64,000 bases of DNA from Candidatus Curtissbacteria bacterium RIFCSPHIGHO2_01_FULL_41_11 (GCA_001776335.1 MFAZ01000043.1:3984-67983), one strand, 5' to 3'. Positions 8,738-36,884 are shown, counted from the first letter of the stretch. A program made the numbers and translations. Notes: generated by a model not told the origin, from the letters alone.

Positions 8738-9269
8738 GGTATTTTTTCAGTTTTTTTAAGGCGAGAGCCCTGTGAGAAATTTTGTTTTTTAATGATGAAG
8801 GCATTTGAGAATAAGTTTTGTTGTACCCCTTAGGAATAAAAACAAAGTCGAACCCAAAACCGGAATTGCCTCTTGCGTGTGGAATAACTTTTCCCCAAAC
8901 CGTTCCTTTGAAAACCTTTAAAGTGCGTCCATCGTAGATTGCGACAGCATCTGTCACCTTAGTTTTTCTACTTCCCTTAACCAATTGGACAGTTTTTTCC
9001 TCGCCTAAAGTTTTAAGGAAAAACTTTACAAACGGACCGGGCAGACCGTTTAATCCTTCAATTTCCAAGCTAACATCGGTAACTAAAACCGGCTTTTTAA
9101 TTTTTTCGTATGCGGCTTTGGCTTTTTCGGTAATTACCTCGTCTAAGTTTAACGACTGGATTTCGGGAATATCTATATTGGAGATTTTATGGTTGGTCCC
9201 CAAAATTGCATTGATTTCGTCAATTTTGCCAGCGTTTGAAGTTACAACTACAAGATCGCTGATTTTCAT
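8727..9269 (-). CDS. rdgB: Non-canonical purine NTP pyrophosphatase (RdgB/HAM1, ITPase)
   Basis: 180 aa. TSNAGK, SLEIEGLNGLPG, GFGFDFVF motifs. Confidence 0.85.
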   Translation of the reverse strand: MKISDLVVVTSNAGKIDEINAILGTNHKISNIDIPEIQSLNLDEVITEKAKAAYEKIKKPVLVTDVSLEIEGLNGLPGPFVKFFLKTLGEEKTVQLVKGSRKTKVTDAVAIYDGRTLKVFKGTVWGKVIPHARGNSGFGFDFVFIPKGYNKTYSQMPSSLKNKISHRALALKKLKKYLNA

Positions 9270-9889
9270 TATATTTTTACTCCTGATTTTTTTAGGCTGC
9301 TAGCCAAACTTTTTGAACCTTTAAATAAGATTGAATGAATTCCAACAGAATTTGCACTTTCTATATTTGCAATTTTGTCATCAATAAATATTACCCCAGA
9401 AGGCTTCACTCTTATTTTTTTTAAAACGTGTAAGAAGATTTCTTGATCAGGTTTTTTTAAACCGAGCGTAAATGATGTAAAAACTTTATCAAAAAGTTCG
9501 TAAATTCCAGTTTTACCTATAGCATTGAAATGAAGATCTATGGTGTTTGAAAGTAAGTAAATTTTATAATCTTTTTTAAGTTTTTTGATTATTTTGATAA
9601 CTTGTTTATCTATATCCACTTGGGATTCATGAATTTTTTGCCATGTTTCGATTATACTTGCTATCGTTTTTTCACCTGATGTGATGTTTTGAAAAAGTTT
9701 CGCAACTTTTTTGACATTTAATCTACCCAGGGTCCAGTCATTTTTATACTTTTCGTAAAATTCTTGGACCTTTATGTCCTCAATTCCAAAGAAATTTCCC
9801 ATTAGTTCGAAGGTATTTTCATAAGTGTGTCTGAGGACGACGCCTCCCAAATCAAAAATGATAGCTTTTATCATTTTATTCGTATTCAA
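9269..9889 (-). CDS. HAD superfamily hydrolase (subfamily IA)
   Basis: 206 aa. IFDLGGVV motif I, SNT and DD motifs. Confidence 0.7.
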   Translation of the reverse strand: MNTNKMIKAIIFDLGGVVLRHTYENTFELMGNFFGIEDIKVQEFYEKYKNDWTLGRLNVKKVAKLFQNITSGEKTIASIIETWQKIHESQVDIDKQVIKIIKKLKKDYKIYLLSNTIDLHFNAIGKTGIYELFDKVFTSFTLGLKKPDQEIFLHVLKKIRVKPSGVIFIDDKIANIESANSVGIHSILFKGSKSLASSLKKSGVKI

Positions 9890-11396
9890 TGGTTGCCGGG
9901 GGCTTTTGGGTTATATCGTAAACGACACGGTTGACGCCCCTAACTTCATTGACGATTCTGCTTGAGACTTTTTCCAAAACAACGTATGGAATTTTAGACC
10001 AGTCGGCTGTCATAAAATCGGTGGTATCGACGGACCTTAGAGATACAATGTAAGAATATGTCCTGGCATCACCCATAACGCCTACGGATTTAACGGGAAG
10101 AAGTGCGGAAAACGCCTGATTAACTTCCTTATATATATTGTTAGATTTAAGTTCCGAGATGAAAATTTCATCTACCTCTCTTAAGATTTTTAGCCTCTCT
10201 TTGGTAACCTCCCCCACAATTCTTATTGCTAGCCCCGGACCAGGAAATGGATGGCGCATTAAAAACTCTTCCGGTATGCCCAGAAACTTGCCTATTTTTC
10301 TTACTTCGTCCTTGTAAAGATCGGCTACCGGCTCCAATATTTCAAGTTTTAATCCCTGGGGGAGAGTTACATTGTGATGGCTTTTAATCTTATCAGCGTG
10401 TTTCGAAGTCTGCGCGGATTCTATTCTGTCGGAATAAATTGTTCCCTGTCCCAGAAATTTTACCTGCCCAATTTTTTTGGCTTCGTCTTCTAAAATCTTG
10501 AAGTATACTTTTGCAATTCTCTTTCTCTTTTCTTCAGGGTCTACAACCCTTTTTAGTTCTTTCAGAAATGTTTTGGAAGCGTCTACAATTTTAAAATTTT
10601 TAAACTGAACTTTTTTGGCAACTTTTTTTAGGTCTGCAATGTCATAACTTCTAAGAAGTCCGGTTTCGATGAAAACTAAATAAAGATTTTTAGGAGAAGC
10701 TTCTTTAATCAGTGTCGCGGCAACCGTCGAGTCCACACCTCCGGATACTGCCATCAAAACTTTATTTTTGCCTATTTTGTTTTTTATTTTCTTTTTGATT
10801 TCTTCTTTTAGTTCCTTAAGATCCCAATCGTGTTTTGCATTTGAAATTTTAAAGAGGAAGTTTTTGAGAAGGACTCTCCCCTTTTCAGTGTGTGTAACTT
10901 CAGGATGAAATTGAATACCATAAAACTTCTTGTGGGAATTTTCCATAGAGGCAATTTTTGCATTTTTGCTGGATCCGGTTAATTTGAAACCTTTGGGAAG
11001 TTTGTCGACTTGGTCGCCGTGGGAAAACCATACTGTTTCGGTGGAAGAAAGACCAGAAAAAAGCTTTGATTTTGTGATATTTACAGTTTCTTTACCAAAC
11101 TGTTTTGATGAGTGCAACGAAACTTTTCCTCCAAGCTGATAAGCCATAAGTTGCAAACCATAACAGATTCCAAGTATGGGGAGACCTAGATGATAGATTC
11201 TTTGGTTGACGTGAGGAGCATTTTTTTCGTAACACGAAAACGGACTGCCGGAGAATATCAATGCTTGGGGTTTTAGACTTTGAACTTTTTCCGGGCTAAT
11301 ATCAGGGGAAACAAGTTCGCTTTTTACTCCAAAATCCCGCACTCTTCTGGCGATTAGGTGTGCATATTGCCCGCCAAAATTAAAAACCAAAATCAT
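9876..11396 (-). CDS. guaA: GMP synthase (glutamine-hydrolysing)
   Basis: 506 aa. GATase domain plus ATP-PPase SGGVDS motif, C-terminal ...KPPATIEYE. Confidence 0.95.
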   Translation of the reverse strand: MILVFNFGGQYAHLIARRVRDFGVKSELVSPDISPEKVQSLKPQALIFSGSPFSCYEKNAPHVNQRIYHLGLPILGICYGLQLMAYQLGGKVSLHSSKQFGKETVNITKSKLFSGLSSTETVWFSHGDQVDKLPKGFKLTGSSKNAKIASMENSHKKFYGIQFHPEVTHTEKGRVLLKNFLFKISNAKHDWDLKELKEEIKKKIKNKIGKNKVLMAVSGGVDSTVAATLIKEASPKNLYLVFIETGLLRSYDIADLKKVAKKVQFKNFKIVDASKTFLKELKRVVDPEEKRKRIAKVYFKILEDEAKKIGQVKFLGQGTIYSDRIESAQTSKHADKIKSHHNVTLPQGLKLEILEPVADLYKDEVRKIGKFLGIPEEFLMRHPFPGPGLAIRIVGEVTKERLKILREVDEIFISELKSNNIYKEVNQAFSALLPVKSVGVMGDARTYSYIVSLRSVDTTDFMTADWSKIPYVVLEKVSSRIVNEVRGVNRVVYDITQKPPATIEYE

Positions 11397-12364
11397 ACGA
11401 GTTTTGCCAAAGATTCTTCAATCCTTTTTCTTGGTTCGATTGAAAGGTCGATTTCAAATTTTTCTCCGGAAAGTTTTTCGTATACTTCTATATATCTGAG
11501 GGCAATTTTTGCGATTAGGTCGTTTGGCATTTTTGGAGCTTTCCCCCTGCCGGAATATCCTTGCTCCTTGAACCACAACCGCATGAACTCCTTATCATAA
11601 TTTTCCGGCTCTTCGCCTTTTTTAATTCTTGCTGCAAGGGTTTTTTTTACCCAGAAGCGACTGCTATCCGGGGTATGTATTTCGTCAATTAAAATCAGTT
11701 TCCCCCTTTTATCCAAGGCGAATTCGTATTTTGTATCCGCTAAAATCAGTCCTGCTTTATCGGCAATTTGGGATCCCCTTTCAAAGAGTTTCATCGCTGT
11801 CTTTTCTATTTGTTTCCAGACTTGTGGTGATACAATTTTCTGTTTTACAATTTCTTTTGCCGTTATTGGTTCATCGTGGCCGCCTGCTCCAGTTTCTCTT
11901 GTTGTTGGAGTAATGACAGGTTTTTTGAGTTTTTGGTTTTTGGTCAGACCTTGGGGAAATTTAATTCCATAAATAATTCTTTCACCGTTTGCATATTTTT
12001 GCCAAAGTGACGTATCTGTTACTCCGGTTATATACCCACGAACGACAACTTCAATAGGTAATGCTTGGCATTCGGACACAATCATGATATTAGGATCGAT
12101 TACACCAATCATGTGGTTTTGGATAATGTCACGGGTTTTTTCAAACCAAAATTCGGAAAGTTTGGTTAAAACTGCTCCGCGGAATGGAATGTGACCCAAA
12201 ACTTTATCAAAAGCGGAAATTCTATCTGTGGCTATAAGAATTCTTAAGTTGTTTTTTACAAACCAATCACGAACTTTGCCGCTATGCTTTGCTCCTAAAC
12301 CGTGAAGACTAACTGTTGTGATGGCTTGGGGAATATTTTTAGCAATGGTTTTTCTGTCAATCAT
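11393..12364 (-). CDS. purC: Phosphoribosylaminoimidazole-succinocarboxamide synthase (SAICAR synthetase), long form
   Basis: 323 aa SAICAR_synt family. Confidence 0.9.
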   Translation of the reverse strand: MIDRKTIAKNIPQAITTVSLHGLGAKHSGKVRDWFVKNNLRILIATDRISAFDKVLGHIPFRGAVLTKLSEFWFEKTRDIIQNHMIGVIDPNIMIVSECQALPIEVVVRGYITGVTDTSLWQKYANGERIIYGIKFPQGLTKNQKLKKPVITPTTRETGAGGHDEPITAKEIVKQKIVSPQVWKQIEKTAMKLFERGSQIADKAGLILADTKYEFALDKRGKLILIDEIHTPDSSRFWVKKTLAARIKKGEEPENYDKEFMRLWFKEQGYSGRGKAPKMPNDLIAKIALRYIEVYEKLSGEKFEIDLSIEPRKRIEESLAKLV

Positions 12365-12366
12365 TT

Positions 12367-12882
12367 TTATTTATTTCTGAGGTATTTGCGCCAGCCTATT
12401 TTTTGTAAAGTAGCGTTTTTAGATAATACCTCTTTTTTCATGTCATTTTTATATTTTGTAATTCTTTCGAAAAGTTCGGGGTCGGTTGAGGCGATTATTT
12501 GGGCGGCCAAGAGGCCGGCATTCTTGGCGCTATTGATGCCAACGGTTGCAACTGGAACTCCGGATGGCATTTGGACAATTGAAAGTAATGAGTCTAAACC
12601 TTCCAGTGATTTGGTCATTATCGGGACACCTATCACCGGAAGTACGGTAAGAGAAGCAATAGATCCGGGGAGAGCAGCGGCACCTCCGGCACCGGCAATA
12701 ATAACTTTGACGCCTCGACTTTTGGCTTCTTTCGCATATTTGGCAGTTTCTTCCGGGGCGCGGTGAGTTGAAAGAATTATACTTTCGTTTTTGACATGAA
12801 GTTCGTCTAAAATCTTGGAGGCATCTTTCATGACTTCCAAATCAGAATCCGAACCCATGATTATTGCAATCTGGGGCTTCAT
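12367..12882 (-). CDS. purE: 5-(carboxyamino)imidazole ribonucleotide mutase / AIR carboxylase catalytic subunit
   Basis: 171 aa. IIMGSDSD ... AGGAAALPG motifs. Confidence 0.9.
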
Positions 12883-14285
12883 TCTGATAACTCCTTATTT
12901 AGCTCTTTTAAAAAAATTGTACATTGTTGCTGGGCAAGTCCAGCGTGGGCAGTAGGATCGATTAATTGAGGAATTTTTTCACGATCCACGAACTTGATGA
13001 TTATTTTATCCCTTGCTAAAAGATGTGCAATAGGGTTTGCCCCATTTTTATCGATTTGATTCCAGGCTTCCATTGCAATTTGTCGTATTTTTTCATGAAT
13101 TTCTTGCCTGTTTGCCCCATTTTTAACTGCTTCTAACATTAAACTTTCAGTACCGGCAAATGGACCGTATTTTTCAAGATTATTTTTAATATTTGATTCG
13201 TTGACAAGCAAATTGGCGACAAGTTTTTCCGTAACTTCTAAGATTTCATCAGCCGCCAAAAAGGCTTCCGGAATAAAGATGCGACGGTTAGCACTATCAT
13301 CTAATGTTCTTTCCAGTAGTGACTCGGCTGCGTTTGCCCAAGCAATATTTACAAGTGATGAAATGTATCTTGCCAAAGAACAGACTTTTTCCGCTTTGTC
13401 AGGATTTCTTTTAAATGGCATAGCAGAGGAACCAACTCTTTTTTCATCTCTTTTTTCAGACCACTCTCCAATATTAGGTGACTCTAAAATTCTTAAATCG
13501 AAACAGAATTTATGAAGAGATTGTGCGACTGATGAAAGTGCTTGGGCGAGTAACAGATCAATTTTCCTGGGATAGGTTTGGGTGGCGATAATACTTTCTT
13601 TAAGACCAAGTTCGTCCATAACCATTTTACTCATAGTTTGAGCATCTATTTTGCTATTTTTTAGTAATTTGGCGTATGAAGCGCTTGTACCCACGGCGCC
13701 TTTCATACCTTTGGCTAGCAAATTATTTTTAAAATTACGGATAAGCTTTAGGTCAAAAAGTAAGTCTTGGGCGTAGATTGAAAATCGCAGGCCGAGAGTT
13801 GTCGGTTCTGCCGGTTGCAGATGTGTGTAGCCCATGCAAACTGTATTTTTATATTTTCTGATTTGGCGAGAGAAAGTTTTTTCAAGTTTTATTATTTTGC
13901 TTTCAATGATATCTGTGGCTTGTATAATTCTTATAATATCCGCGTTGTCTTCGATGTCCATGCTTGTTGCCCCGAGGTGAATTTTTCCGCCTGCTTTGCC
14001 GCTCTGCATAGCAAAAACTTTAATCTCGGCCATTAAATCGTGGTATATTTCTTTTTCAAATTTTTGGGCGAGAGCAATATCAATTTTGTTAGTGTTCTTT
14101 TCCAAAGATGTTAGTTCTTGTTTTGTCAGAAGTCCTGCTTTCTGCTGTGCACGCGCAAGGGCAACCCAGATTTTTCGCCAGAGTTTTCTCTTATTTATTT
14201 CGGAAAAAATTTTGCGCATCTCGTCACTACCATAGCGCCAAGAAAATGGTGATTGATAAGTGTCAAAATTTAAATCTGCTCTCAT
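12879..14285 (-). CDS. purB: Adenylosuccinate lyase
   Basis: 468 aa. Lyase_1 fold, [11 protein letters not shown] signature. Confidence 0.9.
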
Positions 14286-15370
14286 GTTGTTACTTTTTTG
14301 ATTTGATTTTTGAATAAAGCTTCTTTTATTTCCATTGCTACGCGCTTTCCCACGCTGATTGATTTACCAAACAAATATCCGCTATATGGAGTTGCGAAAA
14401 TGCCGGGAGATCCGGGCATTCTGGGTGAAACGTCAAAAACTACAATTTCTTTTTTTGGGGGGCCAGCGGTAATTATTGATTGTAAACTGAATGGACCGAT
14501 GATTCCAGGCGGAATTATTTCTCTGGCAGCTTTTACAAATTTTTCGCCTATCTCGAAAGCTGGTTCAAGGAGTGATTCTAGCGTAGTTACAGCCATGTGC
14601 CCCGCTTCCTCAAAGCTTGGCCTTGTTCCTGCTTGTAAAGCTTCTATCTGATATTCAGCCAGAAGATTTCTAAGCCCTTCTATATTTGTTTGTCTTCGAG
14701 TATCGGTTCCAATTAACTCTAGACGATTGTTTATGGATGAAAAGAAAAAATTAAAATTTACTTGAACACCAATTACAAATTCCTCGATAATTGCACTTTC
14801 AAGCCCGCGTTTATCAATCTTTCCTTGTTTTAACATGAAACTTGACCATCGGTTGTAACTTATGCGGTCGTAGCACAAGAAGAATCCCCTTTCAAAACGC
14901 CTGTCTTTCTCTTGCGCTTTGACTATAACTAAGCGGTCAATTTCGTCCGGCGTTTTGAATTGCTTGGGGTATCTGATGTCAGCTTTTTCTAGAAGATTAT
15001 ATTGATTGAATTTTTCTGTGCGCTCTTCAATTCTTAATAGTTTCCTATTGCCAAACATTGGGACATTAAAGTCTTTTTCAATTGCATCATAGTCATTTAC
15101 GTAAACTTCGAACGATCGATGAGGAATGAAGATAGCGTTTTTACTTTTGAGAATTTTTTGGACTTTTGGCGAAATTACATCTTTAAATTTATCTACATAT
15201 AAGACTTCGTCAACACAACCTAATTCTCCTTGAGATTTGAAATACTGAGCGTAAGTTTTGTCTCTACCCTTTTCAACAATAACCAGAGTTTTAAAACCTT
15301 CATCTTTTGCACCGCGGCACACATCAAGTGCGCTGTGACTTCCGATGACTGCAATTGACGGTTTAGGCAT
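14282..15370 (-). CDS. purP: 5-formaminoimidazole-4-carboxamide ribonucleotide (FAICAR) synthetase, archaeal-type PurP (ATP-grasp, formate-dependent)
   Basis: 362 aa. N-terminal IAVIGSHSALDVCRGAKDEGF typical of PurP (DUF1246/DUF1297). Confidence 0.75.
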   Translation of the reverse strand: MPKPSIAVIGSHSALDVCRGAKDEGFKTLVIVEKGRDKTYAQYFKSQGELGCVDEVLYVDKFKDVISPKVQKILKSKNAIFIPHRSFEVYVNDYDAIEKDFNVPMFGNRKLLRIEERTEKFNQYNLLEKADIRYPKQFKTPDEIDRLVIVKAQEKDRRFERGFFLCYDRISYNRWSSFMLKQGKIDKRGLESAIIEEFVIGVQVNFNFFFSSINNRLELIGTDTRRQTNIEGLRNLLAEYQIEALQAGTRPSFEEAGHMAVTTLESLLEPAFEIGEKFVKAAREIIPPGIIGPFSLQSIITAGPPKKEIVVFDVSPRMPGSPGIFATPYSGYLFGKSISVGKRVAMEIKEALFKNQIKKVTT

Positions 15371-16643
15371 AAATCACTTCACTCCTATCCGGCCCTACTC
15401 CAATAAAGCTAATGGGTAATTTGGTATAGTTCTCAACAAATTTAATGAAGTTTCTGGCTTCCTGTGGAAGATCAGTCAAGTTTCTCGCTTTTGAAATGTC
15501 TTCGTTCCATCCAGGTAATGTTTTGTAAACAGGTTTTACTGATGAGAGAAAATCTGCATCGCCAGAAATATAATCTGTTGTACTGTTGCCAATCTTGTAC
15601 TGGATGCAAACTTTTATTTCCTTTAACTGTGAGAGGACGTCTAACTTTGTCATTGCAATATTTGTGACTCTATTATTTTCGCAAGCAGTTTTTAGTAAAA
15701 CTAAATCAAGCCAACCCGGGTCTCTAATCCTTCCGGATGTTGTCCCAACTTCCCCACCTTTTTTTATAATCCAATCTCTCTGTTCACCTTTTATGTAGGT
15801 GGGCATGGGGCCCGATCCCACTCGGGTTGTATATGCTTTGGTGATCCCTATTACATAATTTATATCGGTTGGGTGGACGTCAAAACATCTCCAGATCCCA
15901 ATAATACCTGTATTTGAGGAGGTTACAAATGGATAAGTTCCCGCATCAACATCCAGAAAATACCCCTGCGCTCCTTCAAACAAAACATTCTTTTTATTTT
16001 TAATTGCGCTTTTTACAAGCGACGTAGTTTCTGTAACTAGTGGTTTGATGAGGTTTGTGTATTTATGAAATTGTGAATAAATCTTTGACGGTGATAAATT
16101 TAGACTGAAATATTTGTTTTGAATTTTTATTTCTTCACCCAGCAAATCTTTAAAATCTTTCCGGTAAAGATCTCTGACACGAATACCAACTCTTTCGATT
16201 CTATCTGCGTAGGCCGGGCCTACTCCTCTTTTCGTGGTTCCGATTTTGGCGTTTCTTGATTCTTCGCGCTGGCCATCTCTCATTTTATGCCAGGGCATTA
16301 CAAGCGTTGCGCGCTGGTCAATTCTTAAATTTTTCCAGGATACTTTCGCTTTTTTTAGTTGTTGGAGCTCATCATCTATTAACGATTCCAAGTCTACTAG
16401 TACATTTTTGCCTACAATATTTATTGATTTTGAATTAAAGATGCCAGATGGAATTATGTGAAGAGCAAATTTTCCAAATTTGTTTTTTACCGTATGGCCT
16501 GTGTTTGAACCACCATTAAATCGAGCAACAACATCTGCTGTTTGGGCTAAATTGTCTATTAATCTTCCTTTTCCGGAGTCTCCCCAATCTACTCCTATAA
16601 CAGCCGCCACTCCTTTCCAGTTTGAAAGTTTTGATTTTTTCAT
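15363..16643 (-). CDS. purA: Adenylosuccinate synthetase
   Basis: 426 aa. GDSGKGR P-loop, RFNGGSNTGHTV, KFALHIIPSGI. Confidence 0.9.
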   Translation of the reverse strand: MKKSKLSNWKGVAAVIGVDWGDSGKGRLIDNLAQTADVVARFNGGSNTGHTVKNKFGKFALHIIPSGIFNSKSINIVGKNVLVDLESLIDDELQQLKKAKVSWKNLRIDQRATLVMPWHKMRDGQREESRNAKIGTTKRGVGPAYADRIERVGIRVRDLYRKDFKDLLGEEIKIQNKYFSLNLSPSKIYSQFHKYTNLIKPLVTETTSLVKSAIKNKKNVLFEGAQGYFLDVDAGTYPFVTSSNTGIIGIWRCFDVHPTDINYVIGITKAYTTRVGSGPMPTYIKGEQRDWIIKKGGEVGTTSGRIRDPGWLDLVLLKTACENNRVTNIAMTKLDVLSQLKEIKVCIQYKIGNSTTDYISGDADFLSSVKPVYKTLPGWNEDISKARNLTDLPQEARNFIKFVENYTKLPISFIGVGPDRSEVIYA

Positions 16644-16645
16644 TT

Positions 16646-17659
16646 TTAATTTAAAATTTTTTCTGTCGATTTTTCTTTAATCGCTTTTTTTATTTCCATT
16701 GCTATTCTTCTTCCAGTCGAAACGTCTTTTTGGTAATAAAGAGATGCATAGGGGGATCCATTGATAAAAAGGTTCGTTCCAGCAACTATTCTACAAGATA
16801 TTTCAATGACGAAAAATTCCTGATTTGGAGTTATTATTGCCTCAAGACAAAAAGGGCCCCATAGGCCACCTGTCATTAATTTTTTGGAGGCTGTGATAGT
16901 TCTTTCACCCATTTCAAAAGCGTCTGCTAAAAGTGACTCACGAAGAACCAGAGGGCTGTTGCCCACGACAACAAAGCTTGGTTCTATACCAAGCCCTTGC
17001 TGGTTGTGTGACGGGATTCTACCAAGTGAGTCTACATTGCTTTCGTAACGTCTATCAATGGAAAGGACTTCCAGTTTTTTGGTAAGGGGTGAATAAAAAT
17101 AGTGAATGTATGCAGAGACACCGATAACATATTCTTGAATAATAAATTTTTTAGGTTTAAAGTTTTTAATTTTTTGCTTGTATTCTTGTTTGTTTTTAGC
17201 AAAGAAATATCCTTCGCCTCCCGACGCCCCATATGATTTAACAAGAACCGGTCTGTCTATTTCATTGGCTTTAGCAAATTTCCTAGGAACCGGGACGTTT
17301 GCTTTTTCCAACCATTCCCTTTGTTTAAGCCTATCTGATTCCCAATCTAAAACTGCTTTGTTTCCAAAATAATGCACATTCATCTTTTTGTGCTCTTTTA
17401 ATCCAAGATAAGCAACAAAGGATCCGTGGGGAATAAGAATGGCCTTTTCCTCTATAAGTTTTTTTTCGATCTTTGCGAAATCTGAAAAAGTTGGGATTTC
17501 TATTATTTTGTCAATGAAGTTAAATCGTCTATAAAGGGAAACGCGGTTTGGGGTGGCGACTACGATTGTTTCAAAACCTTCGTCTTTTGCGCCTTTTAAA
17601 ATTTGCAGGGCAGAATGAGAGCCAAGTGTGGCAATTTTGTAGGGCTTGCGACCCACCAT
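16646..17659 (-). CDS. purP: Second PurP-family FAICAR synthetase paralog
   Basis: 337 aa. IATLGSHSALQILKGAKDEGF N-terminus, ATP-grasp. Confidence 0.75.
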   Translation of the reverse strand: MVGRKPYKIATLGSHSALQILKGAKDEGFETIVVATPNRVSLYRRFNFIDKIIEIPTFSDFAKIEKKLIEEKAILIPHGSFVAYLGLKEHKKMNVHYFGNKAVLDWESDRLKQREWLEKANVPVPRKFAKANEIDRPVLVKSYGASGGEGYFFAKNKQEYKQKIKNFKPKKFIIQEYVIGVSAYIHYFYSPLTKKLEVLSIDRRYESNVDSLGRIPSHNQQGLGIEPSFVVVGNSPLVLRESLLADAFEMGERTITASKKLMTGGLWGPFCLEAIITPNQEFFVIEISCRIVAGTNLFINGSPYASLYYQKDVSTGRRIAMEIKKAIKEKSTEKILN

Positions 17660-17665
17660 TTACGT

Positions 17666-17694
17666 ATTTTACAGGAATCGAGGCTAAATTGCAA
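17666..17694 (-). promoter_or_regulatory. Sigma70-like promoter TTGCAA-17nt-TAAAAT giving an essentially leaderless transcript for purP (16646..17659)
   Basis: -35 at 17694..17689 and -10 at 17671..17666, with only 6 nt before the ATG at 17659. Confidence 0.45.
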
Positions 17695-17786
17695 ATTTTA
17701 AATAAGACTATAGGATTTTGAGGAGATTATTCCTTTTTCGGTTTCCCGAAATATGCTTAAAGTTTCAGGTTGCATGTCTGGATTCA

Positions 17787-18320
17787 TTATCTTGGAACTG
17801 ATTCTGATCGTCTTAATAAAATTTGCGAGTAAGGATAATTTTCATCGGGTAATCTACCTTTTGAAGTTTTAAAATCAATGACATGTTCTTTTCTCGTAAT
17901 CCCAGTTAATTCAAAATCTTCTTCACTAAAAACAGCGTAAGGTTTTATTCTTACACTTACCACTTCGTGAATTATTCTCGAACCATCTCCTGGATTTGTA
18001 GGAATATTATAAGAGACTGGCACCCAAACCCCCGCAATAAGAATGGCGACTTTATTTATTTTTTCCATCAATTCGCCTTGCGAATAGGTTAGTCTGACAG
18101 ATTTTAATGTGTTAACAAACGGCCAATCCAAACTTAGTTGTTCCGCGAATGTGTTCAGAGCCGCTCTCCTAACCGGGATTGGCCATAGATCAGCTAAATT
18201 TAAACCATAAAAAAAATTGCCCTTGAAGTTACGATCTTGGCTTGGTGTATACCACGAAATTTCTTTACAATATTCAATTTGATGCGAACCAGCGAGAGGG
18301 TGAAGAGTCTCGATTGTCAT
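17787..18320 (-). CDS. Conserved hypothetical protein (177 aa), last gene of the purN-to-purM-like transcription unit
   Basis: Its start overlaps the purM-like stop (ATGA). No TM segments and no motif I can assign. Confidence 0.5.
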   Translation of the reverse strand: MTIETLHPLAGSHQIEYCKEISWYTPSQDRNFKGNFFYGLNLADLWPIPVRRAALNTFAEQLSLDWPFVNTLKSVRLTYSQGELMEKINKVAILIAGVWVPVSYNIPTNPGDGSRIIHEVVSVRIKPYAVFSEEDFELTGITRKEHVIDFKTSKGRLPDENYPYSQILLRRSESVPR

Positions 18321-19414
18321 CTTAAATCTAACGTTTCTGACCCGAAGGTTATATTTTTGGGTCTGATGATTACTTGGCGAGGTCCGACCTCGACATGACC
18401 GGCATCAAGGGATGATAATTTGTTGTTTTTTATGATTTGTTGAGCTTTTTTGACATGTGATTCCGGTAAAAAAATTGCATAATCCTGCCCCATGTTAAGA
18501 GTTTGATAAATTTCATAGTCTGAGAGACCTGCATGTTTTTGGATAAATGTAAAAACTTCTTGAGGATTAAAGACCTTTTCAATTATATATGTAAATTCTC
18601 CCCTTGCCCTCATTATTTTTCTAAGTCCATGGCCGGTGATGTTGGAAATGTAATGGATATTAACTCCTTCATCGAGTAAATTCTGGATTAGTTTTGCATA
18701 AATGTTGGTTTTTGTCAGAAGGACTTCCCCATACATTTTGCCGCTCGGGAGTTTTATTGCATATCCTTTGGTGAGTTTTTTGGAAACCGCTCGGGCTAAA
18801 GATATACCGTTACAGTTAATTCCGCTGCTTTTCAAAAGCAGAATACGGTCTCCTGCTTTAAGTTTTTTGTCCGTAATCAGTTTATCTTTGGGGTCGATGA
18901 CTCCAATTGCAGACCCTCCAAGATCAACTGTGTCTTTTTCTATTACTCCTTTTAAGGTTGGGGTTTCGCCGCCGCCCCACGTTGCCATAGATACTTTACA
19001 AGCGTCACGCCAGCCCGTTACGAAATCTGTCATTCTATCTTTATCTTGTAACCAGCTGTTATCTTCGATAGCCCAGTAAGCATGAATGACTCTCGGCTTT
19101 GCACCGACTGTAATGAGGTCATTGATTATTGTGGCAACTGTGTCATAACCAATTACGTCGTAATATGTTCTTCCTGTTATCTTGCGCAATTGATCTGCGA
19201 CAAGATTTTTGGTGCCCAAACCTTCAACGACTGAGGCCATTAAAACATCCCCTTGTTGCCAAACAAAAGCTGACTCTCCACGACTGTCTGTGATTTCAAA
19301 AAAACCTGATTTCTCTTTGATTATTGTTTGACGGGCAAAAAGTTGCGCCATTTTTTTAACCGGGTCTTTTGTGTCGTAATTATCTCCGACTTTCCCGTAA
19401 GTGATTTTTTTCAT
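18317..19414 (-). CDS. purM: AIR synthase-related protein, probable phosphoribosylformylglycinamidine cyclo-ligase
   Basis: 365 aa. EGLGTKNLVAD and INDLITVGAKPRVIHAY align with PurM DGVGTKL / VNDLVVQGAEPLFFLDY. Confidence 0.6.
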   Translation of the reverse strand: MKKITYGKVGDNYDTKDPVKKMAQLFARQTIIKEKSGFFEITDSRGESAFVWQQGDVLMASVVEGLGTKNLVADQLRKITGRTYYDVIGYDTVATIINDLITVGAKPRVIHAYWAIEDNSWLQDKDRMTDFVTGWRDACKVSMATWGGGETPTLKGVIEKDTVDLGGSAIGVIDPKDKLITDKKLKAGDRILLLKSSGINCNGISLARAVSKKLTKGYAIKLPSGKMYGEVLLTKTNIYAKLIQNLLDEGVNIHYISNITGHGLRKIMRARGEFTYIIEKVFNPQEVFTFIQKHAGLSDYEIYQTLNMGQDYAIFLPESHVKKAQQIIKNNKLSSLDAGHVEVGPRQVIIRPKNITFGSETLDLR

Positions 19415-20217
19415 GACTGCTGTGCGAATTTTACCATTGATTCAAATATTAACCCACCTTTTGCACTAACGTTTCCTCTTCTCCAATTTGGATGCTGAGT
19501 TAATTCTATTATTTTTTCAGGGTGAGGCATGAGTCCCAGAATGCGGCCTGTCGGATCTGTTATACCGGCTATTGCATTTAATGCTCCATTCGGATTTGGA
19601 GGGTACTTTTGTGTAGGACGGCCATTTTGATCGACGTATCTGCAGAAAACTAAGTTTTCCTTTTCGATTTTGCTGATTGTTTTATTATCTGAGAAAAATT
19701 TACCTTCGCCATGATTTACGGAAATATCTATAACTTGTTCAACATAAGGCTTTAGAAATATTGCACATGATTGTTGGATTTTGATTTTGACGAAACGGCA
19801 TTCGAAATGGCCACTTTCGTTCTGTGCAAGTGTTGCATCCATTTCACCTAAATGATTGAAGGGTAAAAGGCCGGTCCTAACTAAAACCTGGAAACCGTTG
19901 CATATACCGAGGATCAATTTTTTTCTACTTACAAATTCCTGGATTTGATCTTTTAAAAAACTCACTAATTCTGTCGCCAGAATTTTTCCAGATACAACAT
20001 CGTCTCCATATGCAAAACCACCGGGGATTGCTAGAATCTGGTAGTTTTTTAGATGTTTGATTTTAGATCTTAGTTGGTTAATATGAACATACTCTGGTTC
20101 CCCACCGAATTTTTCGAATGCGTAGAATGTCTCTTCATCGCAATTTATTCCATCGGCCCGCAGAATACAAACTTTAGGCTTCATGTGTGAAATATCTCTT
20201 TCATTGGTTTTTGCCAA
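19411..20217 (-). CDS. purQ: Phosphoribosylformylglycinamidine synthase I (glutaminase subunit)
   Basis: 268 aa class-I GATase. Catalytic Cys in GICNGFQ, HPE near the C-terminus. Confidence 0.9.
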   Translation of the reverse strand: MAKTNERDISHMKPKVCILRADGINCDEETFYAFEKFGGEPEYVHINQLRSKIKHLKNYQILAIPGGFAYGDDVVSGKILATELVSFLKDQIQEFVSRKKLILGICNGFQVLVRTGLLPFNHLGEMDATLAQNESGHFECRFVKIKIQQSCAIFLKPYVEQVIDISVNHGEGKFFSDNKTISKIEKENLVFCRYVDQNGRPTQKYPPNPNGALNAIAGITDPTGRILGLMPHPEKIIELTQHPNWRRGNVSAKGGLIFESMVKFAQQS

Positions 20218-23012
20218 GCGGTCTTTAATTTTCCTACGTCAACAGAAAAAAAGTTTTCAATTGATAATGTTTGTTTTTTAATCGTTTCTCCGAGTATCTT
20301 GTATGGAACATTTTTAAATAATTTATGCGCTTGTTCTTTACCTTTAACTTCCACAATAAAACAGCCGGCAGTCTCGTTGAAAAGAAAATAATCGGGTCTT
20401 ACTTTTTTATCGGTGATGATTTTCGCACCCATTGTTCCTCCAAGACACATTTCAAAAATCGCAGTTATAATTCCCCCTTCAGAAACATCGTGACACGAAA
20501 GAATTTTGCCATTTGAAATACCCTGATTTATTACATCCAAAACTTTAGGCAGAATTTTAAGATCTATTTTTGGAACGCTTTCTCCAAGAAGCTCGTTTTT
20601 GCTGAAATACACAGTACCGCCCATTGATGACATATCCATCTTTCCTACTTGTACAATGGTTGACCCAGTTTTTTTAAAGTCTGAAGAGGTGGTCTTTTTG
20701 ACGTCTGGTATTTTTCCAAAAACTGATATACACAGAACCGGCGGAATTTTTAGGACGAAGCCGTCATCTGATCGATATGTTGAGGAAAGGCTGTCTTTGC
20801 CGGAAATTACCGGAATTTTTAAGGTCTTCATAAAATCAACAACGGCTGTGACGGATCTATCCAGGGATCCTAAAGACTCTTCGTCCGGAAATGGCCAAAT
20901 ATAATTGTTGACTAGCGATGCGTCTTGATAGATTCCGCCAACGGCAACATAATTTGAAATTGCTTCTGTTGCCGCCCAAATACTTCCCCAATACGGGTCG
21001 ATTCTGTTTAAGATTGGGTTTAATCCGTGGGCGACAACCATTCCATATGGTTTGCCCAAAATAGGCCGGATTACTGCAGCATCATTAGGTCCATCATAAG
21101 ATTCTCCTGTAAATGGCTGAAGAACACTTGTTCCTTGGACGGTATGGTCATACATTCTAAGAATTGGTTCTTTAGAACATATATTTCCGTCTGACAGTAC
21201 GTCTTGCAAAGTTTTTATCCATTCGGTTTGGTTTTTGGGAATCTTTGGCGATTTATTTTCTTTTGATTTGGATTTAGCAACCTCTTCCGCATTCATTACC
21301 CTTTGCGGCAATCCTTCGTGCAGAAATTGCATTTCCAAATCGCAAACTTTTTCGCTGCCATAGAAAACTTTTAGTTTTTTGGTGTCGTCGAAAGTTCCTA
21401 ATGTTGAAATTTCGACGTTATATTTTCCGCAGATTTTTTTGAACTTATTGATTTTATTTTTTGGGATTGCAAGGACTATTCTTTCTTGGGATTCAGATAA
21501 CCAAATTTCCCAAGGGTTTAGCCCTTGGTATTTTAGCCTCTCATTTTTGAGTTGAACCGATACTCCGGTTTCGGCACCCATTTCCCCTATTGCTGATGAG
21601 AGGCCGCCGCCGCCGCTGTCTTGCATCGCACGTATGCAGTCTTGATCGCGAGCTTCAATAATTGCATCGAAAGTCCTTTTTTCTTCTATTGCATTACCTA
21701 TTTGGACTGCTTGGGCGTTGACTGTTATTGTCCTTTGAGTCATTTCACCCGAAGAAAATGTTGCTCCGTGTATTCCGTCCCTACCTACCCTTCCACCAAT
21801 ACTTACAACAACATCACTTTTTTGAACTTTACCCTTTTTGGCGTATTTTTTTGGAAGAATTCCGTATGCACCAACTAATATTGTCGGCTTGGCGCGAAAA
21901 TCGTCGTGGAAATGGAAGGAGCCATTATTGGTTGGAATACCCATTCTGTTTCCGTAATCACGGACGGCTGATACGACTCGGGAAAGAATGTATCTTGGGG
22001 GCAGAGAACCCTTTGGAAGCTTTTTCGGATTCAGGTCCCAGTTTGCAAGACAAAATATATCTGTAGAAATCACAGTTTTTGCTCCTTGTCCTGTCGCTAC
22101 GATATCCCTGAAAACTCCTCCGCTTCCAGTCATAGCACCACCGTATGGTTCTATTGCAGAAGGACTGTTGTGGGTTTCTCCTTTTCCGTTAATTGCCCAT
22201 CCGTCATAGAAATCCATTACCCCTGCATTGTCGACGAAGGCTGAAACGATATTCTTCTTATGCTTAAATGCTTCTTTTTTAAGCCGCGTAATAAAAGGCT
22301 CTTTTTCTTTTCCGCCAACAATTATTTTTGCCCTAAATGTTTTATGACCAGAGTGTTCGCTCCAAGTTTGTGCAAGAGTTTCGATCTCGCAATCTGTAGG
22401 CTCTCTTTCAATTTTTTTGAAATAGTTTTGGATCACTTTCATTTCTTCAAGATTAAGAAAAAGTTTATCTTTTGAAAGATTCATAAGTTCTTCGTCTGAT
22501 ATATTTCGTATTGTCAGAGTTTGAGTTTTGCCAACTTTGCCCGTTATTAAAAGAGTCTTGGGCCTTTGATCTACTATATGTTCTATCAGTGGGTTATATA
22601 GACGTAGTTTGGCTATGAGATTTTTTGCTTCACCTCTTGTAAGTTCTCCGAAAAACACATATTCCCATGACGAATCTGCTGCCGTTAGTTTTATTCCTAA
22701 ATCTTTTGCCGCCTTAAGGAGCGAGCCGACTTCCGGATTCATCACTCCGGGTTTGTAAGCAACTTCTATCGTTTGGTTTGCATCTTTTAAGATAGACCCG
22801 TTGTATGAAACATTCTGGTCAATTTCTTCATATAAAACTTTTTGGGTGAATTTTTTAAGATCTGGTTTCGAAATTCCTTCAAGGCGGTAGACTTTTACCG
22901 TCCTTATTTTTTTAATGGGATATGTTTTAAGTGCTCTTTTAATTTCGGTGAGTAGATCTTCGCCCCGCGAATCCCGTTCTGCTTTTGATGTAACTCTAAC
23001 TTCGTAAATCAT
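20181..23012 (-). CDS. purL: Phosphoribosylformylglycinamidine synthase II with an N-terminal PurS-like domain (PurS-PurL fusion)
   Basis: 943 aa. The first ~80 aa (MIYEVRVTSKAERDSRGEDLLTEIKRALKTYPIKKIRTVKVYRLEG) resemble PurS, followed by the PurL AIRS/AIRS_C duplications. Confidence 0.85.
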   Translation of the reverse strand: MIYEVRVTSKAERDSRGEDLLTEIKRALKTYPIKKIRTVKVYRLEGISKPDLKKFTQKVLYEEIDQNVSYNGSILKDANQTIEVAYKPGVMNPEVGSLLKAAKDLGIKLTAADSSWEYVFFGELTRGEAKNLIAKLRLYNPLIEHIVDQRPKTLLITGKVGKTQTLTIRNISDEELMNLSKDKLFLNLEEMKVIQNYFKKIEREPTDCEIETLAQTWSEHSGHKTFRAKIIVGGKEKEPFITRLKKEAFKHKKNIVSAFVDNAGVMDFYDGWAINGKGETHNSPSAIEPYGGAMTGSGGVFRDIVATGQGAKTVISTDIFCLANWDLNPKKLPKGSLPPRYILSRVVSAVRDYGNRMGIPTNNGSFHFHDDFRAKPTILVGAYGILPKKYAKKGKVQKSDVVVSIGGRVGRDGIHGATFSSGEMTQRTITVNAQAVQIGNAIEEKRTFDAIIEARDQDCIRAMQDSGGGGLSSAIGEMGAETGVSVQLKNERLKYQGLNPWEIWLSESQERIVLAIPKNKINKFKKICGKYNVEISTLGTFDDTKKLKVFYGSEKVCDLEMQFLHEGLPQRVMNAEEVAKSKSKENKSPKIPKNQTEWIKTLQDVLSDGNICSKEPILRMYDHTVQGTSVLQPFTGESYDGPNDAAVIRPILGKPYGMVVAHGLNPILNRIDPYWGSIWAATEAISNYVAVGGIYQDASLVNNYIWPFPDEESLGSLDRSVTAVVDFMKTLKIPVISGKDSLSSTYRSDDGFVLKIPPVLCISVFGKIPDVKKTTSSDFKKTGSTIVQVGKMDMSSMGGTVYFSKNELLGESVPKIDLKILPKVLDVINQGISNGKILSCHDVSEGGIITAIFEMCLGGTMGAKIITDKKVRPDYFLFNETAGCFIVEVKGKEQAHKLFKNVPYKILGETIKKQTLSIENFFSVDVGKLKTAWQKPMKEIFHT

Positions 23013-24309
23013 TTTTTTTGAGCCTTTCTAAGTCACGCCAACCAATATCGGTCCTGTAATGCAAATTATCCCCTTCGATAAATAATTGTGACATAGCTTC
23101 GTATACTTTCTTTCTCGCATCAATTACTGTTTTTCCTTCCGCCACGACATGGAACAATCTTCCTGATGAGACAAAATACCTATCTTTTTCGCGTTTTACC
23201 CGAGCGCCATACATCGTCACATCTTTTAATTTGAGCACTTTTTTCAAACCGAATAGTTCTCTTTGTTTTTCTGGAATTCCAGGTTTAAGTGAACCAGTGA
23301 CGGCTACTCTGGCATTTCCGTCGGTCTTAATCTTTATATCATCAAGGGTGCCTTTTGAAACATGGACTGCGATTTCAAAGATATCGCTTTGTATTCCCGG
23401 AACAAGCACTTCTGCTTCCGGACTTCCCCAGCGTGCATTGAATTCAATGACAAAAACTTTATTATTGACAACAATTGCACCAAGGTAAAGAACTCCTTTG
23501 TATTGCCGTCCTTCTACTGCAAGACCTTGTATTGTTTTTTTTATGATTAATTCTGCCTGTTTGTAAATATTCTCGTTAACAATTAAGGGTGGGGTACTGC
23601 AACCTATCCCTCCAGTATTTGGGCCTTTGTCAGCATCGTAAAGTCTCTTGTGATCTTGTGCGCTTCCCACAATTTGAAATGTTTTGCCATCCGTTATTGC
23701 GAACATCGAGAATTCTTCTCCATCAAGCCATTGTTCAATTAAAAATGTTTCGCCTGCTTTTTTGAACTTTGACATTTGATCAATCGCATCAAAAGCCTGT
23801 TTGGTGTTTTCCGCTGGAATTGCTCCTTTTCCCTCAGCGAGTCCTGCCGCTTTTATGAAAAATCTTTTGTTTGGATTTTTGCTTATGAATTCTTTTGCGG
23901 GTTTTGTGGAATTAAAAACTCTATAAACGGGGGTGGGGATTTTATATTTTTTCATAAAATTACGTGCCCAAGCCTTATCCCACTCTATTTGGCCAGCCAT
24001 CCTAGTAGGTCCCAGTGTCATGATTCCTGTTTTTATTAAGTGATCTGTCAAACCTGCTTCCACGGCGTTGTCTTGGGCAACATCCACCAAAGTGACATTC
24101 TCCCTTTTGGAAATGTTGACTATTTCTTTTACGTCTGTGGTTTTGAGATCTGGGAAGATTTTTAAATTTTTTGTAGTATTGAGACCCATTAGGTCATTTC
24201 CTGGTACTGCAAGTAATTTTCCTACGTGTTTACTTTGAGAATATTTGTGGATTAAGGCGGCTCCTCTGCCCCCTGCGTCTACTACAAGAACAGTTGCGCT
24301 TTTTACCAT
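22996..24309 (-). CDS. purD: Phosphoribosylamine-glycine ligase
   Basis: 437 aa ATP-grasp GARS family. Confidence 0.9.
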   Translation of the reverse strand: MVKSATVLVVDAGGRGAALIHKYSQSKHVGKLLAVPGNDLMGLNTTKNLKIFPDLKTTDVKEIVNISKRENVTLVDVAQDNAVEAGLTDHLIKTGIMTLGPTRMAGQIEWDKAWARNFMKKYKIPTPVYRVFNSTKPAKEFISKNPNKRFFIKAAGLAEGKGAIPAENTKQAFDAIDQMSKFKKAGETFLIEQWLDGEEFSMFAITDGKTFQIVGSAQDHKRLYDADKGPNTGGIGCSTPPLIVNENIYKQAELIIKKTIQGLAVEGRQYKGVLYLGAIVVNNKVFVIEFNARWGSPEAEVLVPGIQSDIFEIAVHVSKGTLDDIKIKTDGNARVAVTGSLKPGIPEKQRELFGLKKVLKLKDVTMYGARVKREKDRYFVSSGRLFHVVAEGKTVIDARKKVYEAMSQLFIEGDNLHYRTDIGWRDLERLKKNDLRS

Positions 24310-24322
24310 GGGTTATTTTACT

Positions 24323-24931
24323 TTACGCACAAAGCTTTTGCAAAACTTTTACATAAAGAGCGTTTTCTTTTTTCTTGAGTCTTGTGTAGAGAGAATCAAC
24401 CGTATCATACTTTTGGGTTTTCACAAAAGCCCTTTCTAAAACCGGCCCAAAATCAAATTCATGAGTTAGGAAGTGAATACTGGAGCCGGCATACGTGGCT
24501 CTTTTATCGAGAAAGTTTTGGATAGCAACATTTGCCAACTTACCTTTATTCCAAATTGCATCTGTGCCATCCGGATTTTTAAATTTTACATTTTTGGTAT
24601 CTGGAATAATTCCGGGGTGGATATTCAAGATTCTTTTGGGAAATTTATCTATTACTTCGTCAGTTACTATTTGTTTCCACCCTGCAAGTGCGATGTAATC
24701 GGGTTTGTAACGTTCTAAAATTTTTATTAAATCTTCTTTTTTGGGAGAAATCGCAATTTTTATTTTGTGTTTTTTTGCTCTTGCTAGGCCTTTTGCGCCT
24801 GGTGTGTCGCTGATTACTATAACAATTTCAGCGTTAATTTCTTTTTTTTCGGTCGCGTCAATAATTGCCTGGAGATTGGTGCCTGTTCCGTAATTAGAGA
24901 TTAGAACAGCTAGCTTCTTCATTGAATGCAA
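24323..24931 (-). CDS. purN: Phosphoribosylglycinamide formyltransferase
   Basis: 202 aa. Formyl_trans_N, NIHPGIIPD-like motif. Confidence 0.85.
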   Translation of the reverse strand: MHSMKKLAVLISNYGTGTNLQAIIDATEKKEINAEIVIVISDTPGAKGLARAKKHKIKIAISPKKEDLIKILERYKPDYIALAGWKQIVTDEVIDKFPKRILNIHPGIIPDTKNVKFKNPDGTDAIWNKGKLANVAIQNFLDKRATYAGSSIHFLTHEFDFGPVLERAFVKTQKYDTVDSLYTRLKKKENALYVKVLQKLCA

Positions 24932-25311: not shown

Positions 25312-25742
25312 CTTTAGGGAAGAAGGGCGATCGCTACGCTCAGTTTATATGAACGTAGAGGAAAGTCCAGACAGCAGAAAGCAGGGTGCGGGGCGTAAGC
25401 TCCGACGCGTATCCTTCGATAAGCTCAGGGTAACCCGAGTAAATTGAAGGGTCAAGCGCTAGTATCCCGAGTACCGAAAAGGAAAGGGGGCGGATTCTGA
25501 ACTGACAGGATTCGAGAGCCACAGTGACGATTAGATCCTAAGTCCGTCAGCTGACGGATATGGGTCGAAATGAAACGGTAAAGGTAATCCTCCCTGCTGC
25601 AACCCAGAACAAAGCCAATAATCATGCTTTCGAGGGGGCTTTAAATAGGGGCATCCGCCGGAGAGGCGGACGAATTGATGAATATCATTTCGAGATAGAT
25701 GATCGCATTTTAACAAAATCTGGCTTACTCACTTCCCTAAAG
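25312..25742 (+). ncRNA. rnpB: RNase P RNA (bacterial ribozyme)
   Basis: Perfect 11-bp P1 helix CTTTAGGGAAG (25312-25322) pairing with CTTCCCTAAAG (25732-25742). CR-I-like GAGGAAAGTCCAGAC at 25358, GCAGGGTGC, CCACAGTGACGA, a CR-III-like AACAAAGCCAATAAT...GAGGGGG, and CR-V-like ACAAAATCTGGCTTAC at 25713. GC-rich structured island producing only noise ORFs, followed by a T-run. Confidence 0.75.
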
Positions 25743-25751
25743 TTTTTTTGC

Positions 25752-36837: not shown

Positions 36838-36884
36838 CACTCGGATTTGACAAAGGATATTTAAAAAGTGTTAGATATACAAAG

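Follow-up and report, generated by a model that had tools for sequence, protein, structure and literature searches.

An archaeal-type PurP pair in a purine cluster of Candidatus Curtissbacteria, and an embedded 177-aa gene considered as its IMP cyclohydrolase

Introduction

How is the purine ring closed in a bacterium whose purine cluster contains no recognisable inosine 5'-monophosphate (IMP) cyclohydrolase? This question is raised by a stretch of 64,000 nucleotides from Candidatus Curtissbacteria bacterium RIFCSPHIGHO2_01_FULL_41_11 (GCA_001776335.1 MFAZ01000043.1:3984-67983), analysed in full and referred to here as the window. Its minus-strand purine cluster (8727-24931, defined from a list of open reading frames (ORFs) and from Pfam and NCBIfam scans) carries two purP genes of archaeal type and, embedded among the pur genes, a small gene for a protein of 177 aa (ORF177, 17787-18320, minus strand). 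As a first-pass annotation of the window had already noted, a recognisable cyclohydrolase is missing: the substantial ORFs of the 64-kb window include none with a PurH (MGS + AICARFT_IMPCHas), PurJ or PurO domain, and tblastn with a related PurH from the Candidate Phyla Radiation (CPR) gave no match in it. That annotation had gone on to propose ORF177, by guilt by association, as a candidate for the missing enzyme, which would have addressed a question open since 2011 at the latest. Comparison with other loci says otherwise.

The puzzle of a missing IMP cyclohydrolase in the presence of paired PurPs is real and has already been described for archaea, and it is its occurrence in bacteria that is new. 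Cruz et al. (2019, PMC6486802) state that PurPs are restricted to archaea, that PF1517-type and divergent-type PurPs always co-occur, and that archaea having both lack PurH, PurO, PurV and PurJ. Both Brown et al. (2011, PMC3261824) and Sarisky's group (PMC6797443) conclude that a third IMP cyclohydrolase must exist in archaea, and they report that FAICAR (5-formamidoimidazole-4-carboxamide ribonucleotide) does not cyclise spontaneously under assay conditions. Among the papers available to the search, none linked PurP with CPR bacteria. The reading that we favour, with a probability of about 0.65, is that the window holds a two-operon Curtissbacteria purine cluster with an archaeal PurP pair, in which ORF177 is a lineage-specific addition and the cyclohydrolase is supplied otherwise.

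A lineage-restricted gene at the end of an operon

If ORF177 were the missing cyclohydrolase, it should be found where PurP is found and PurH is not, and the co-occurrence check suggested in the first-pass annotation has therefore been run. By tblastn (E ≤ 0.01) in 117 loci, only L001-L007 contain an ORF177 homologue, and none of the PurP or PurH loci does. The gene was found in none of the other PurH-less Curtissbacteria-type loci (0/7, L008-L014), and in none of the archaeal loci with the same two PurP subtypes as the window, cluster Ib and cluster II (0/4, L016, L018, L019 and L022). ORF177 is thus not linked to PurP-only purine pathways and, with those homologues whose surroundings are readable lying outside purine clusters, its candidacy as a cyclohydrolase loses its comparative footing.

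These homologues are extremely few. A word-indexed search of 5.8 billion proteins returned only a 99% identical copy, HMMER, run exhaustively over 1.84 billion representative proteins, yielded five real homologue clusters, and an alignment-based profile search found five proteins in 5.8 billion, of which only one (P0007) was new. There was no sequence match to ORF177 in Pfam, NCBIfam or the PDB, and PHROGs and PADLOC gave nothing usable. For the three homologues with readable surroundings, no pur genes were found nearby: the closest (P0002, 38% identity) comes after genes for Exo_endo_phos, 7TM_transglut and ATPgrasp_ST proteins, P0003 (30% identity) lies among hypothetical genes and adjoins a PIN toxin pair, and P0007 is flanked by a Wzy_C-type gene and, at its other end, by a 192-aa gene of unknown function, with an AAA ATPase gene beyond the latter. 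No conserved partner gene of the homologues was found; all that P0002 and P0003 have in common is regional synteny at a distance, consisting of a 150-aa gene and one of the Exo_endo_phos type. Other candidates were rejected, namely a repetitive protein of 1773 aa (P0004), which on reading was a low-complexity artefact, and matches to DgpB, RPC5 and AbiEi, which were at chance level.

The position of ORF177, which made it look like a purine gene, has another explanation. Its start does overlap the stop of purM, as the first-pass annotation had described, with ATGA as the overlapping sequence, and downstream of it lies a promoter (17666-17694, minus strand, found by promoter scan) with the elements TTGCAA and TAAAAT separated by 17 nt, which ends 6 nt before the purP1 ATG. 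Across eight Curtissbacteria-type loci (the window and L008-L014) there is no variation in the TTGC, in the TAnAAT hexamer or in the purP1 ATG, and the spacings of 17 nt and 6 nt are shared as well; this conserved promoter, directly upstream of purP1, splits the purine cluster into two operons. Operon 1 would consist of purN-purD-purS/L-purQ-purM, to which ORF177 is appended in the window, and operon 2, started by the conserved promoter, of purP1-purA-purP2-purB-purE-purC-guaA-HAD-ham1. The earlier assignment of ORF177 as the last gene of its transcription unit therefore holds. With the transcription start site placed from the sigma-70-type promoter, the purP1 mRNA is predicted to be leaderless or near-leaderless. 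Two other features of this region may be mentioned: a CCTATAGT motif is found just upstream of the promoter in the window, L010 and L011 (and in part in L008 and L013), and a small hairpin, TTTCGG-GAAA-CCGAAA, was read from the sequence downstream of ORF177 (17736-17751, minus strand), which has no T-run, was not called a terminator by the scan and is of uncertain significance.

Since the promoter sits directly before purP1, the 3' end of purM is an operon end that tolerates additions, and the related loci bear this out in a variety of ways. The purM-purP1 gap without ORF177 is 54 bp in L008, the closest relative, and 93 bp in L011, and elsewhere the junction holds a gene for a membrane-anchored dioxygenase-like protein (L009), an opposite-strand gene (L013), a 4.3-kb insert with toxin-antitoxin and PD-(D/E)XK genes (L012) or a gene for an M24-like peptidase (L017). 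ORF177 is a gene restricted to one species-level lineage and inserted at this permissive junction, and guilt by association is therefore weak. As for composition, its GC content at third codon positions (GC3) is 27.5%, the lowest of the pur-cluster genes with only the HAD gene lower (25.6%), and its codon usage is the most divergent of the genes compared, by a difference that is within the range for short genes.

Two PurP proteins of archaeal cluster Ib and cluster II

The first-pass annotation had recognised two archaeal-type PurPs by their N-terminal motifs, and both proteins are true members of the family by Pfam and PDB matches and by alignment, with the motifs GSHSALQILKGAKDEGF and GSHSALDVCRGAKDEGF present as described. 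PurP1 (16646-17659, minus strand) matches Pfam DUF1246 and DUF1297 with 148.6 and 232.2 bits and, among solved structures, scores 358 bits against Pyrococcus furiosus PF1517 and 305 bits against Methanocaldococcus jannaschii PurP. PurP2 (14282-15370, minus strand), in which DUF1246 and DUF1297 were also found, is much more divergent from these structures, with 234 bits (M. jannaschii PurP) and 160 bits.

Subtypes of PurP can be told apart by diagnostic residues (Brown et al., 2011, PMC3261824). Cluster I proteins have a (K/R)GG(K/R)G loop at M. jannaschii (Mj) positions 161-165 and Asn258, and in cluster II proteins the loop is two residues longer and has basic residues, and position 258 is His. 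To read these positions, the copies of the window and of the other loci, 39 PurP proteins in all, were aligned with two PDB sequences. In PurP1 the loop is GASGG--EG, which has the cluster I length and keeps the glycines with Ser and Glu in place of the basic residues (the same loop in other Curtissbacteria is AGG(R/A/H)G), Asn is found at Mj position 258 (VVGNSP), and His27 (GSHSAL) and Arg314 (ISCRIV) are kept when compared with 2R7K. In PurP2 the loop EKDRRFERG, aligned with G-ARGG--RG of M. jannaschii PurP in which it opens a two-residue gap, is basic and of the cluster II type, and the residue at Mj position 258 is His (EAGHMA), as it is in all 19 cluster II copies aligned. Judged by these residues and scores, the two proteins of the window are an archaeal cluster Ib + cluster II pair, PurP1 being PF1517-like ('PurP II' of Cruz et al.) and PurP2 being the cluster II PurP-like protein ('PurP III' of Cruz et al.).

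The resemblance to the archaeal pair, known from P. furiosus (PF1517, PDB 2R84, and PF0421) and found in Pyrococci, Sulfolobales and Thaumarchaeota, shows in several features: there is one paralogue of each subtype, with a loop of the diagnostic length and Asn or His at position 258, both genes lie inside a purine cluster with no PurO or PurH2 nearby, and PurP1 scores best against PF1517. The window differs from it in its CPR bacterial host, in purP genes that flank purA instead of adjoining each other, in a PurP1 loop that has the glycines but not the basic residues of (K/R)GG(K/R)G, and in having CPR sister lineages that combine the pair with full-length PurH. M. jannaschii PurP (MJ0136, PDB 2R7K), a formate- and ATP-dependent FAICAR synthetase, belongs to the same DUF1246 + DUF1297 ATP-grasp family, and its His27, Arg314 and most positions that contact 5-aminoimidazole-4-carboxamide ribonucleotide (AICAR) are kept in both PurPs of the window. 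However, MJ0136 is a cluster Ia protein, present as a single copy together with PurO, whereas neither PurP of the window is cluster Ia, and PurP2 differs from it further by His for Asn258 and by the longer loop. PurP1 would be a candidate for formate- and ATP-dependent formylation of AICAR, but its nearest characterised relative, PF1517, lacked this activity in vitro (Cruz et al., PMC6486802).

The pair is not peculiar to this genome. When GTDB species representatives were scanned with PurP1, matches of 75-87% identity came up in metagenome-assembled genomes (MAGs) of Candidatus Curtissbacteria (some in bins labelled otherwise), then more distant ones in Levyibacteriota and Gottesmanbacteria, which are both Microgenomates and CPR, and then matches of 40-55% in DPANN-like and other archaeal MAGs. 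Among the loci examined, one cluster Ib and one cluster II copy are found per locus in the window, L008-L019, L022, L028, L030 and L034-L037. By tblastn, the gene order purSL-purQ-purM / purP1-purA-purP2-purB-(purK)-purE-purC-guaA is kept in the seven other Curtissbacteria-type loci (L008-L014), with purN-purD preceding wherever the locus extends far enough. In a neighbour-joining tree there are two deep clades, Ib and II, and in each of them CPR sequences group beside DPANN-like archaeal ones, a pattern that, in a rough tree built by neighbour-joining only, fits acquisition of the pair by CPR in a single paired transfer from DPANN-like archaea. Paired cluster Ib/II PurPs, restricted to archaea in the literature, are widespread and well conserved in CPR Microgenomates. 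A few locus labels contradict gene content, since L011 ('Gammaproteobacteria') and L010 ('Saccharimonadales') have Curtissbacteria-type clusters, and L016 and L019, labelled 'Methanosarcinales', have DPANN-like clusters; mistakes in binning or labelling are the probable cause.

An empty purH slot

What the window lacks is best appreciated by comparison with its relatives. In the Levyibacteriota locus L015, a gene for full-length PurH (MGS + AICARFT_IMPCHas) lies between purP1 and purP2. A search with this PurH, in which the best 120 PurH relatives were considered and the surroundings fetched for six of them, plus one locus from a metagenome scan, showed that the arrangement is recurrent: purH comes directly after the cluster Ib purP in all CPR loci in which a PurH was found (9/9: L015, L028, L029, L030, L034-L037 and L040). 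The cluster II purP comes next in L015 and L028-L030, sometimes with a small phosphatase gene in between; in L034-L037 it is purA that lies between purH and the cluster II purP, and L040 ends within purA. The metagenome scan gave only three close PurH relatives, all in the PurP1-PurH arrangement, the other PurHs being unrelated, at about 40% identity. A folate-dependent PurH wedged as a tight unit between two PurP-like genes is therefore a feature of many Microgenomates.

In the window, purP1 and purA are separated by 2 nt, and the purH slot is empty. Two of the PurH-bearing loci, L034 and L037, share with the window the flanking synteny recX-rny-HU-miaA-AI-2E, and the purP genes of the window share 64-70% identity with those of the L034 type. 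For purA the figure is only about 40% in comparison with the PurH-bearing L034-L037 (in L034, purA lies at 11516-12772), and 60-67% in comparison with L008-L014. This discrepancy suggests that in the lineage of the window a different purA took the place of a [purH-purA] segment.

The cluster is incomplete in other respects. Neither purF nor purK was found in the 64-kb window, and an extension of 5 kb beyond the window start contains no pur genes. Among related loci, purF lies within the cluster in L015, L017 and L034 and is absent from the L008-L014 loci. In several relatives (L010, L011, L015, L017, L028, L030, L034 and L035) these genes are part of the cluster, purK with purB and purE on either side of it and purF adjoining purN or fused to it.

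A predicted ASCH/PUA-like fold for the 177-aa protein

Structure prediction, which had likewise been recommended for ORF177, gave a fold. With a six-sequence family alignment, AlphaFold2 produced one confident model, disordered at its N-terminus (predicted local distance difference test score, pLDDT, of 73.7, and of about 85 over residues 40-175), and in a Foldseek search ASCH/PUA-like proteins ranked first (probability 0.99-1.0, E of about 4e-3). The matched proteins were Escherichia coli YqfB (an N4-acetylcytidine (ac4C) amidohydrolase, PDB 9KYF), Lactobacillus crispatus ASCH (3S9X), Enterococcus faecalis EF3133 (1T62) and Zymomonas mobilis ASCH (5GUQ), and the two predicted models examined, which share one alignment, are not fully independent. 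ORF177 is thus predicted to be a highly divergent ASCH/PUA-like beta-barrel, which adds a tiny, very divergent branch to this fold. At the sequence level, none of the six family members had a Pfam match to ASCH at E ≤ 10, and an hhalign comparison of the family with YqfB was not significant (probability 0.9%), with an aligned region that the fold search later supported.

Nothing in this protein recalls a known cyclohydrolase. PurO has an Ntn-hydrolase (N-terminal nucleophile) fold, and PurH2 and PurJ have an MGS-like fold. ORF177 has no match to PurO or PurH2 profiles, no Ntn-hydrolase or MGS-like structure was among the top 50-60 structural matches listed, and all that it shares with these enzymes is a purine-cluster neighbourhood.

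Its likeness to YqfB, in turn, does not extend to the active site. The catalytic residues of YqfB are Lys21, Thr24, Arg26 and Glu74 (PMC6972931). In the hhalign register, which is a sequence register and not a structural superposition, Glu74 falls on Thr139, in a column that is T/A/I/S in the family, and the K73-S74-x-R76 segment is not conserved. Compared with YqfB and other ASCH proteins, ORF177 further differs by its disordered N-terminus of about 35 residues and by an extra helix. Over a range of 20-38% identity the family keeps a common core and a fold that is predicted with confidence, with L42, L62, G97, W99, P101, V120, K126, P127, P163 and L169 invariant, Lys126 as the only invariant polar residue, and a basic residue at 115 and Tyr/Phe at 162 largely conserved. 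From a surface whose conserved residues are aromatic and basic and include no nucleophile or acid, we infer that ORF177 would be a PUA-like binding module rather than a hydrolase. It may bind, and perhaps process, a modified nucleoside, a nucleotide or an RNA base via the surface formed by Trp99, Arg/Lys115, Lys126 and Tyr162-Pro163, and could act as an accessory nucleotide-hygiene or salvage factor, in a loose sense like the HAD and Ham1 proteins.

Where might the ring be closed?

Our favoured reading, a two-operon cluster in which ORF177 is a lineage-specific addition, leaves the IMP cyclohydrolase step to be carried out by the product of a purH, purJ or purO gene outside the window, by the PurP Ib/II pair itself or by a still unknown enzyme. 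There are points that weigh against it. ORF177 is co-oriented within the purine cluster and translationally coupled to purM, which is a classic signature of functional linkage; since some ASCH enzymes are nucleobase amidohydrolases (YqfB), catalysis on a purine intermediate is conceivable by analogy; and the absence of ORF177 was judged on sister loci, where incomplete bins could explain it, just as the position of purH and purF is judged on loci alone. That ORF177 is a novel, non-homologous IMP cyclohydrolase completing a PurP-based pathway nonetheless strikes us as very improbable. Its place in the cluster, the ATGA overlap, the lack of PurH and PurO in the window and a fold class that includes small amidohydrolases of nucleobase amides such as YqfB all speak for it, and are outweighed by its absence from the other purH-less clusters, bacterial and archaeal, by a worldwide total of five real homologue clusters with three homologues in non-purine surroundings, by the lack of conservation of the Lys-Thr-Arg-Glu set of YqfB in a family whose sole invariant polar residue is Lys126, and by a predicted fold that is neither that of PurO (Ntn) nor that of PurH2 (MGS). 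At the other extreme, ORF177 might be selectively neutral cargo, recently inserted and tolerated at the operon end. A junction that accepts unrelated inserts in sister loci, a restriction to one lineage, a low GC3 and the largest codon divergence are compatible with this, but the intact frame, the start precisely coupled to purM and the conserved core are not what would be expected of such cargo, the difference in composition remains within the short-gene range, and we consider it improbable, if less so than a cyclohydrolase.

For the missing activity there are two main candidate sources. A purH gene, or a stand-alone purJ or purO, may be located elsewhere in the genome, as purF must be, with ORF177 irrelevant to the pathway; we regard this as a serious possibility, at somewhat below even odds. 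There is, to our knowledge, no substitute for purF, and its absence from both the window and L008-L014 means that the cluster does not hold the complete gene set; moreover, related Microgenomates carry full-length PurH. However, in every CPR locus with PurH (9/9) the gene is found between the two purP genes and no other context was seen, none of the best 120 PurH relatives is on a contig that matches in length the 527-kb Curtissbacteria contig of L013, and the 5 kb past the window start hold no pur gene; these indirect and non-exhaustive searches revealed no relocated purH. Conversely, the cluster Ib + II pair, alone or with a partner other than ORF177, might perform both AICAR formylation and ring closure and make purH dispensable, which is a tentative idea that we rate only a little lower. 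Both purP genes are kept (68-87% identity across species) while the purH slot is empty, purH occupies that slot in sister lineages that share the flanking synteny (L034 and L037), and Brown et al. (PMC3261824) note the same correlation in archaea and speculate that one PurP-like protein is the cyclohydrolase; hetero-hexamers of Ib and II proteins are proposed by Cruz et al. (PMC6486802). Against this, Cruz et al. report that neither P. furiosus protein, cluster Ib or II, acted as a FAICAR synthetase in vitro, PurH is retained alongside the pair in many genomes of CPR and Methanosarcinales, where the pair is then not simply redundant with PurH, and a genome-wide absence of purH would be an extrapolation from the loci examined. 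The stronger statement that Curtissbacteria truly lost purH, and that the Ib + II pair acquired by Microgenomates, alone or with a partner that is not ORF177, suffices for the conversion of AICAR to IMP, seems to us rather unlikely.

Should purH truly have been lost, nature would have provided, in Curtissbacteria and their purH-bearing sisters, a series of knock-outs in which to pursue the 'third IMP cyclohydrolase' that Pyrococci, Crenarchaeota and Thaumarchaeota are expected to have. The presence or absence of purH between paired purP genes in CPR is, in any case, a tractable route to this archaeal question, and one that offers mesophilic genes for complementation in E. coli.

Gene content of the cluster and of the rest of the window

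The gene content given in the first-pass annotation is accurate: every gene that it named is present on the minus strand at the position given, and only its purS-purL fusion calls for a qualification. Operon 1 starts with purN (24323-24931), for glycinamide ribonucleotide (GAR) formyltransferase, which matches Pfam Formyl_trans_N with 111.6 bits and TIGR00639 with 127 bits, below the cut-off of 150, and whose position is kept in L008 and L011. It is followed by purD (22996-24309), for GAR synthetase (Pfam GARS_N, GARS_A and GARS_C), and by purL (20181-23012), whose product of 943 aa has an N-terminal PurS-like extension. The PurL part is solid (TIGR01736, 525 bits over residues 187-940, and Pfam FGAR-AT_linker, AIRS and AIRS_C), and the PurS part is plausible and weakly shown, by a match to NF005019 at residues 81-143 with an E-value of 3e-4. 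Next come purQ (19411-20217), for the glutaminase subunit of formylglycinamidine ribonucleotide (FGAM) synthase (Pfam GATase_5, 266 bits), and purM (18317-19414), for a divergent aminoimidazole ribonucleotide (AIR) synthetase with Pfam AIRS and AIRS_C domains and a TIGR00878 score of 186 bits, below the cut-off of 236, of which orthologues with 59-88% identity are found in all related clusters.

In operon 2, also on the minus strand, the purP genes flank purA (15363-16643), for adenylosuccinate synthetase (Pfam Adenylsucc_synt, 498 bits). Downstream of purP2 are purB (12879-14285), for adenylosuccinate lyase (Pfam Lyase_1 and ADSL_C), purE (12367-12882; Pfam AIRC, 210 bits), which has no adjacent purK in contrast to L010, L011 and L015, purC (11393-12364), for phosphoribosylaminoimidazole-succinocarboxamide (SAICAR) synthetase (Pfam SAICAR_synt, 217.6 bits), and guaA (9876-11396), for guanosine 5'-monophosphate (GMP) synthase (Pfam GATase and GMP_synt_C). 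The cluster reaches past the limit of 9876 drawn in the first-pass annotation, since two genes continue it after guaA. The first, which overlaps the 3' end of guaA, encodes a HAD-family hydrolase, a possible nucleotidase (9269-9889; Pfam Hydrolase and HAD_2, with weak NCBIfam matches of nucleotidase type), and the second, the last gene of the operon, encodes a Ham1/inosine triphosphatase (ITPase), a pyrophosphatase for non-canonical purine nucleoside triphosphates (8727-9269; Pfam Ham1p_like, 146.8 bits), which is also found after guaA in L010, L011, L013 and L014. Within both blocks genes mostly overlap or are spaced by 1-2 nt, and purN and purD are separated by 13 nt. No riboswitch of the purine or ZTP class was detected when the cluster and its upstream region were searched.

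Outside the cluster, a divergent bacterial class-A RNase P RNA was noticed at 25315-25743 (plus strand), between purN and the gene for the AI-2E transporter, with 76.7 bits (below the Rfam gathering score of 100) and an E-value of 2.3e-22 over the full model; an ORF of 129 aa that overlaps it (25560-25949, plus strand) has no Pfam match and is probably spurious. A tRNA gene lies at 36767-36837 (plus strand; Rfam, 55.7 bits), and the ORFs overlapping there, 36725-37165 (minus strand) and 36885-37337 (plus strand), are probably not genes. Two longer ORFs, of 608 aa (27794-29620, plus strand) and 475 aa (2314-3741, minus strand), have no Pfam match, and the first of them adjoins a gene for a PMT-family glycosyltransferase. 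The remaining sequence is a core region typical of bacteria and includes genes for rpoB, rpoC, S12, S7, EF-G, EF-Tu and ribosomal protein operons, together with adk, map, rpoA, recA, recX, the RNase Y gene and miaA.

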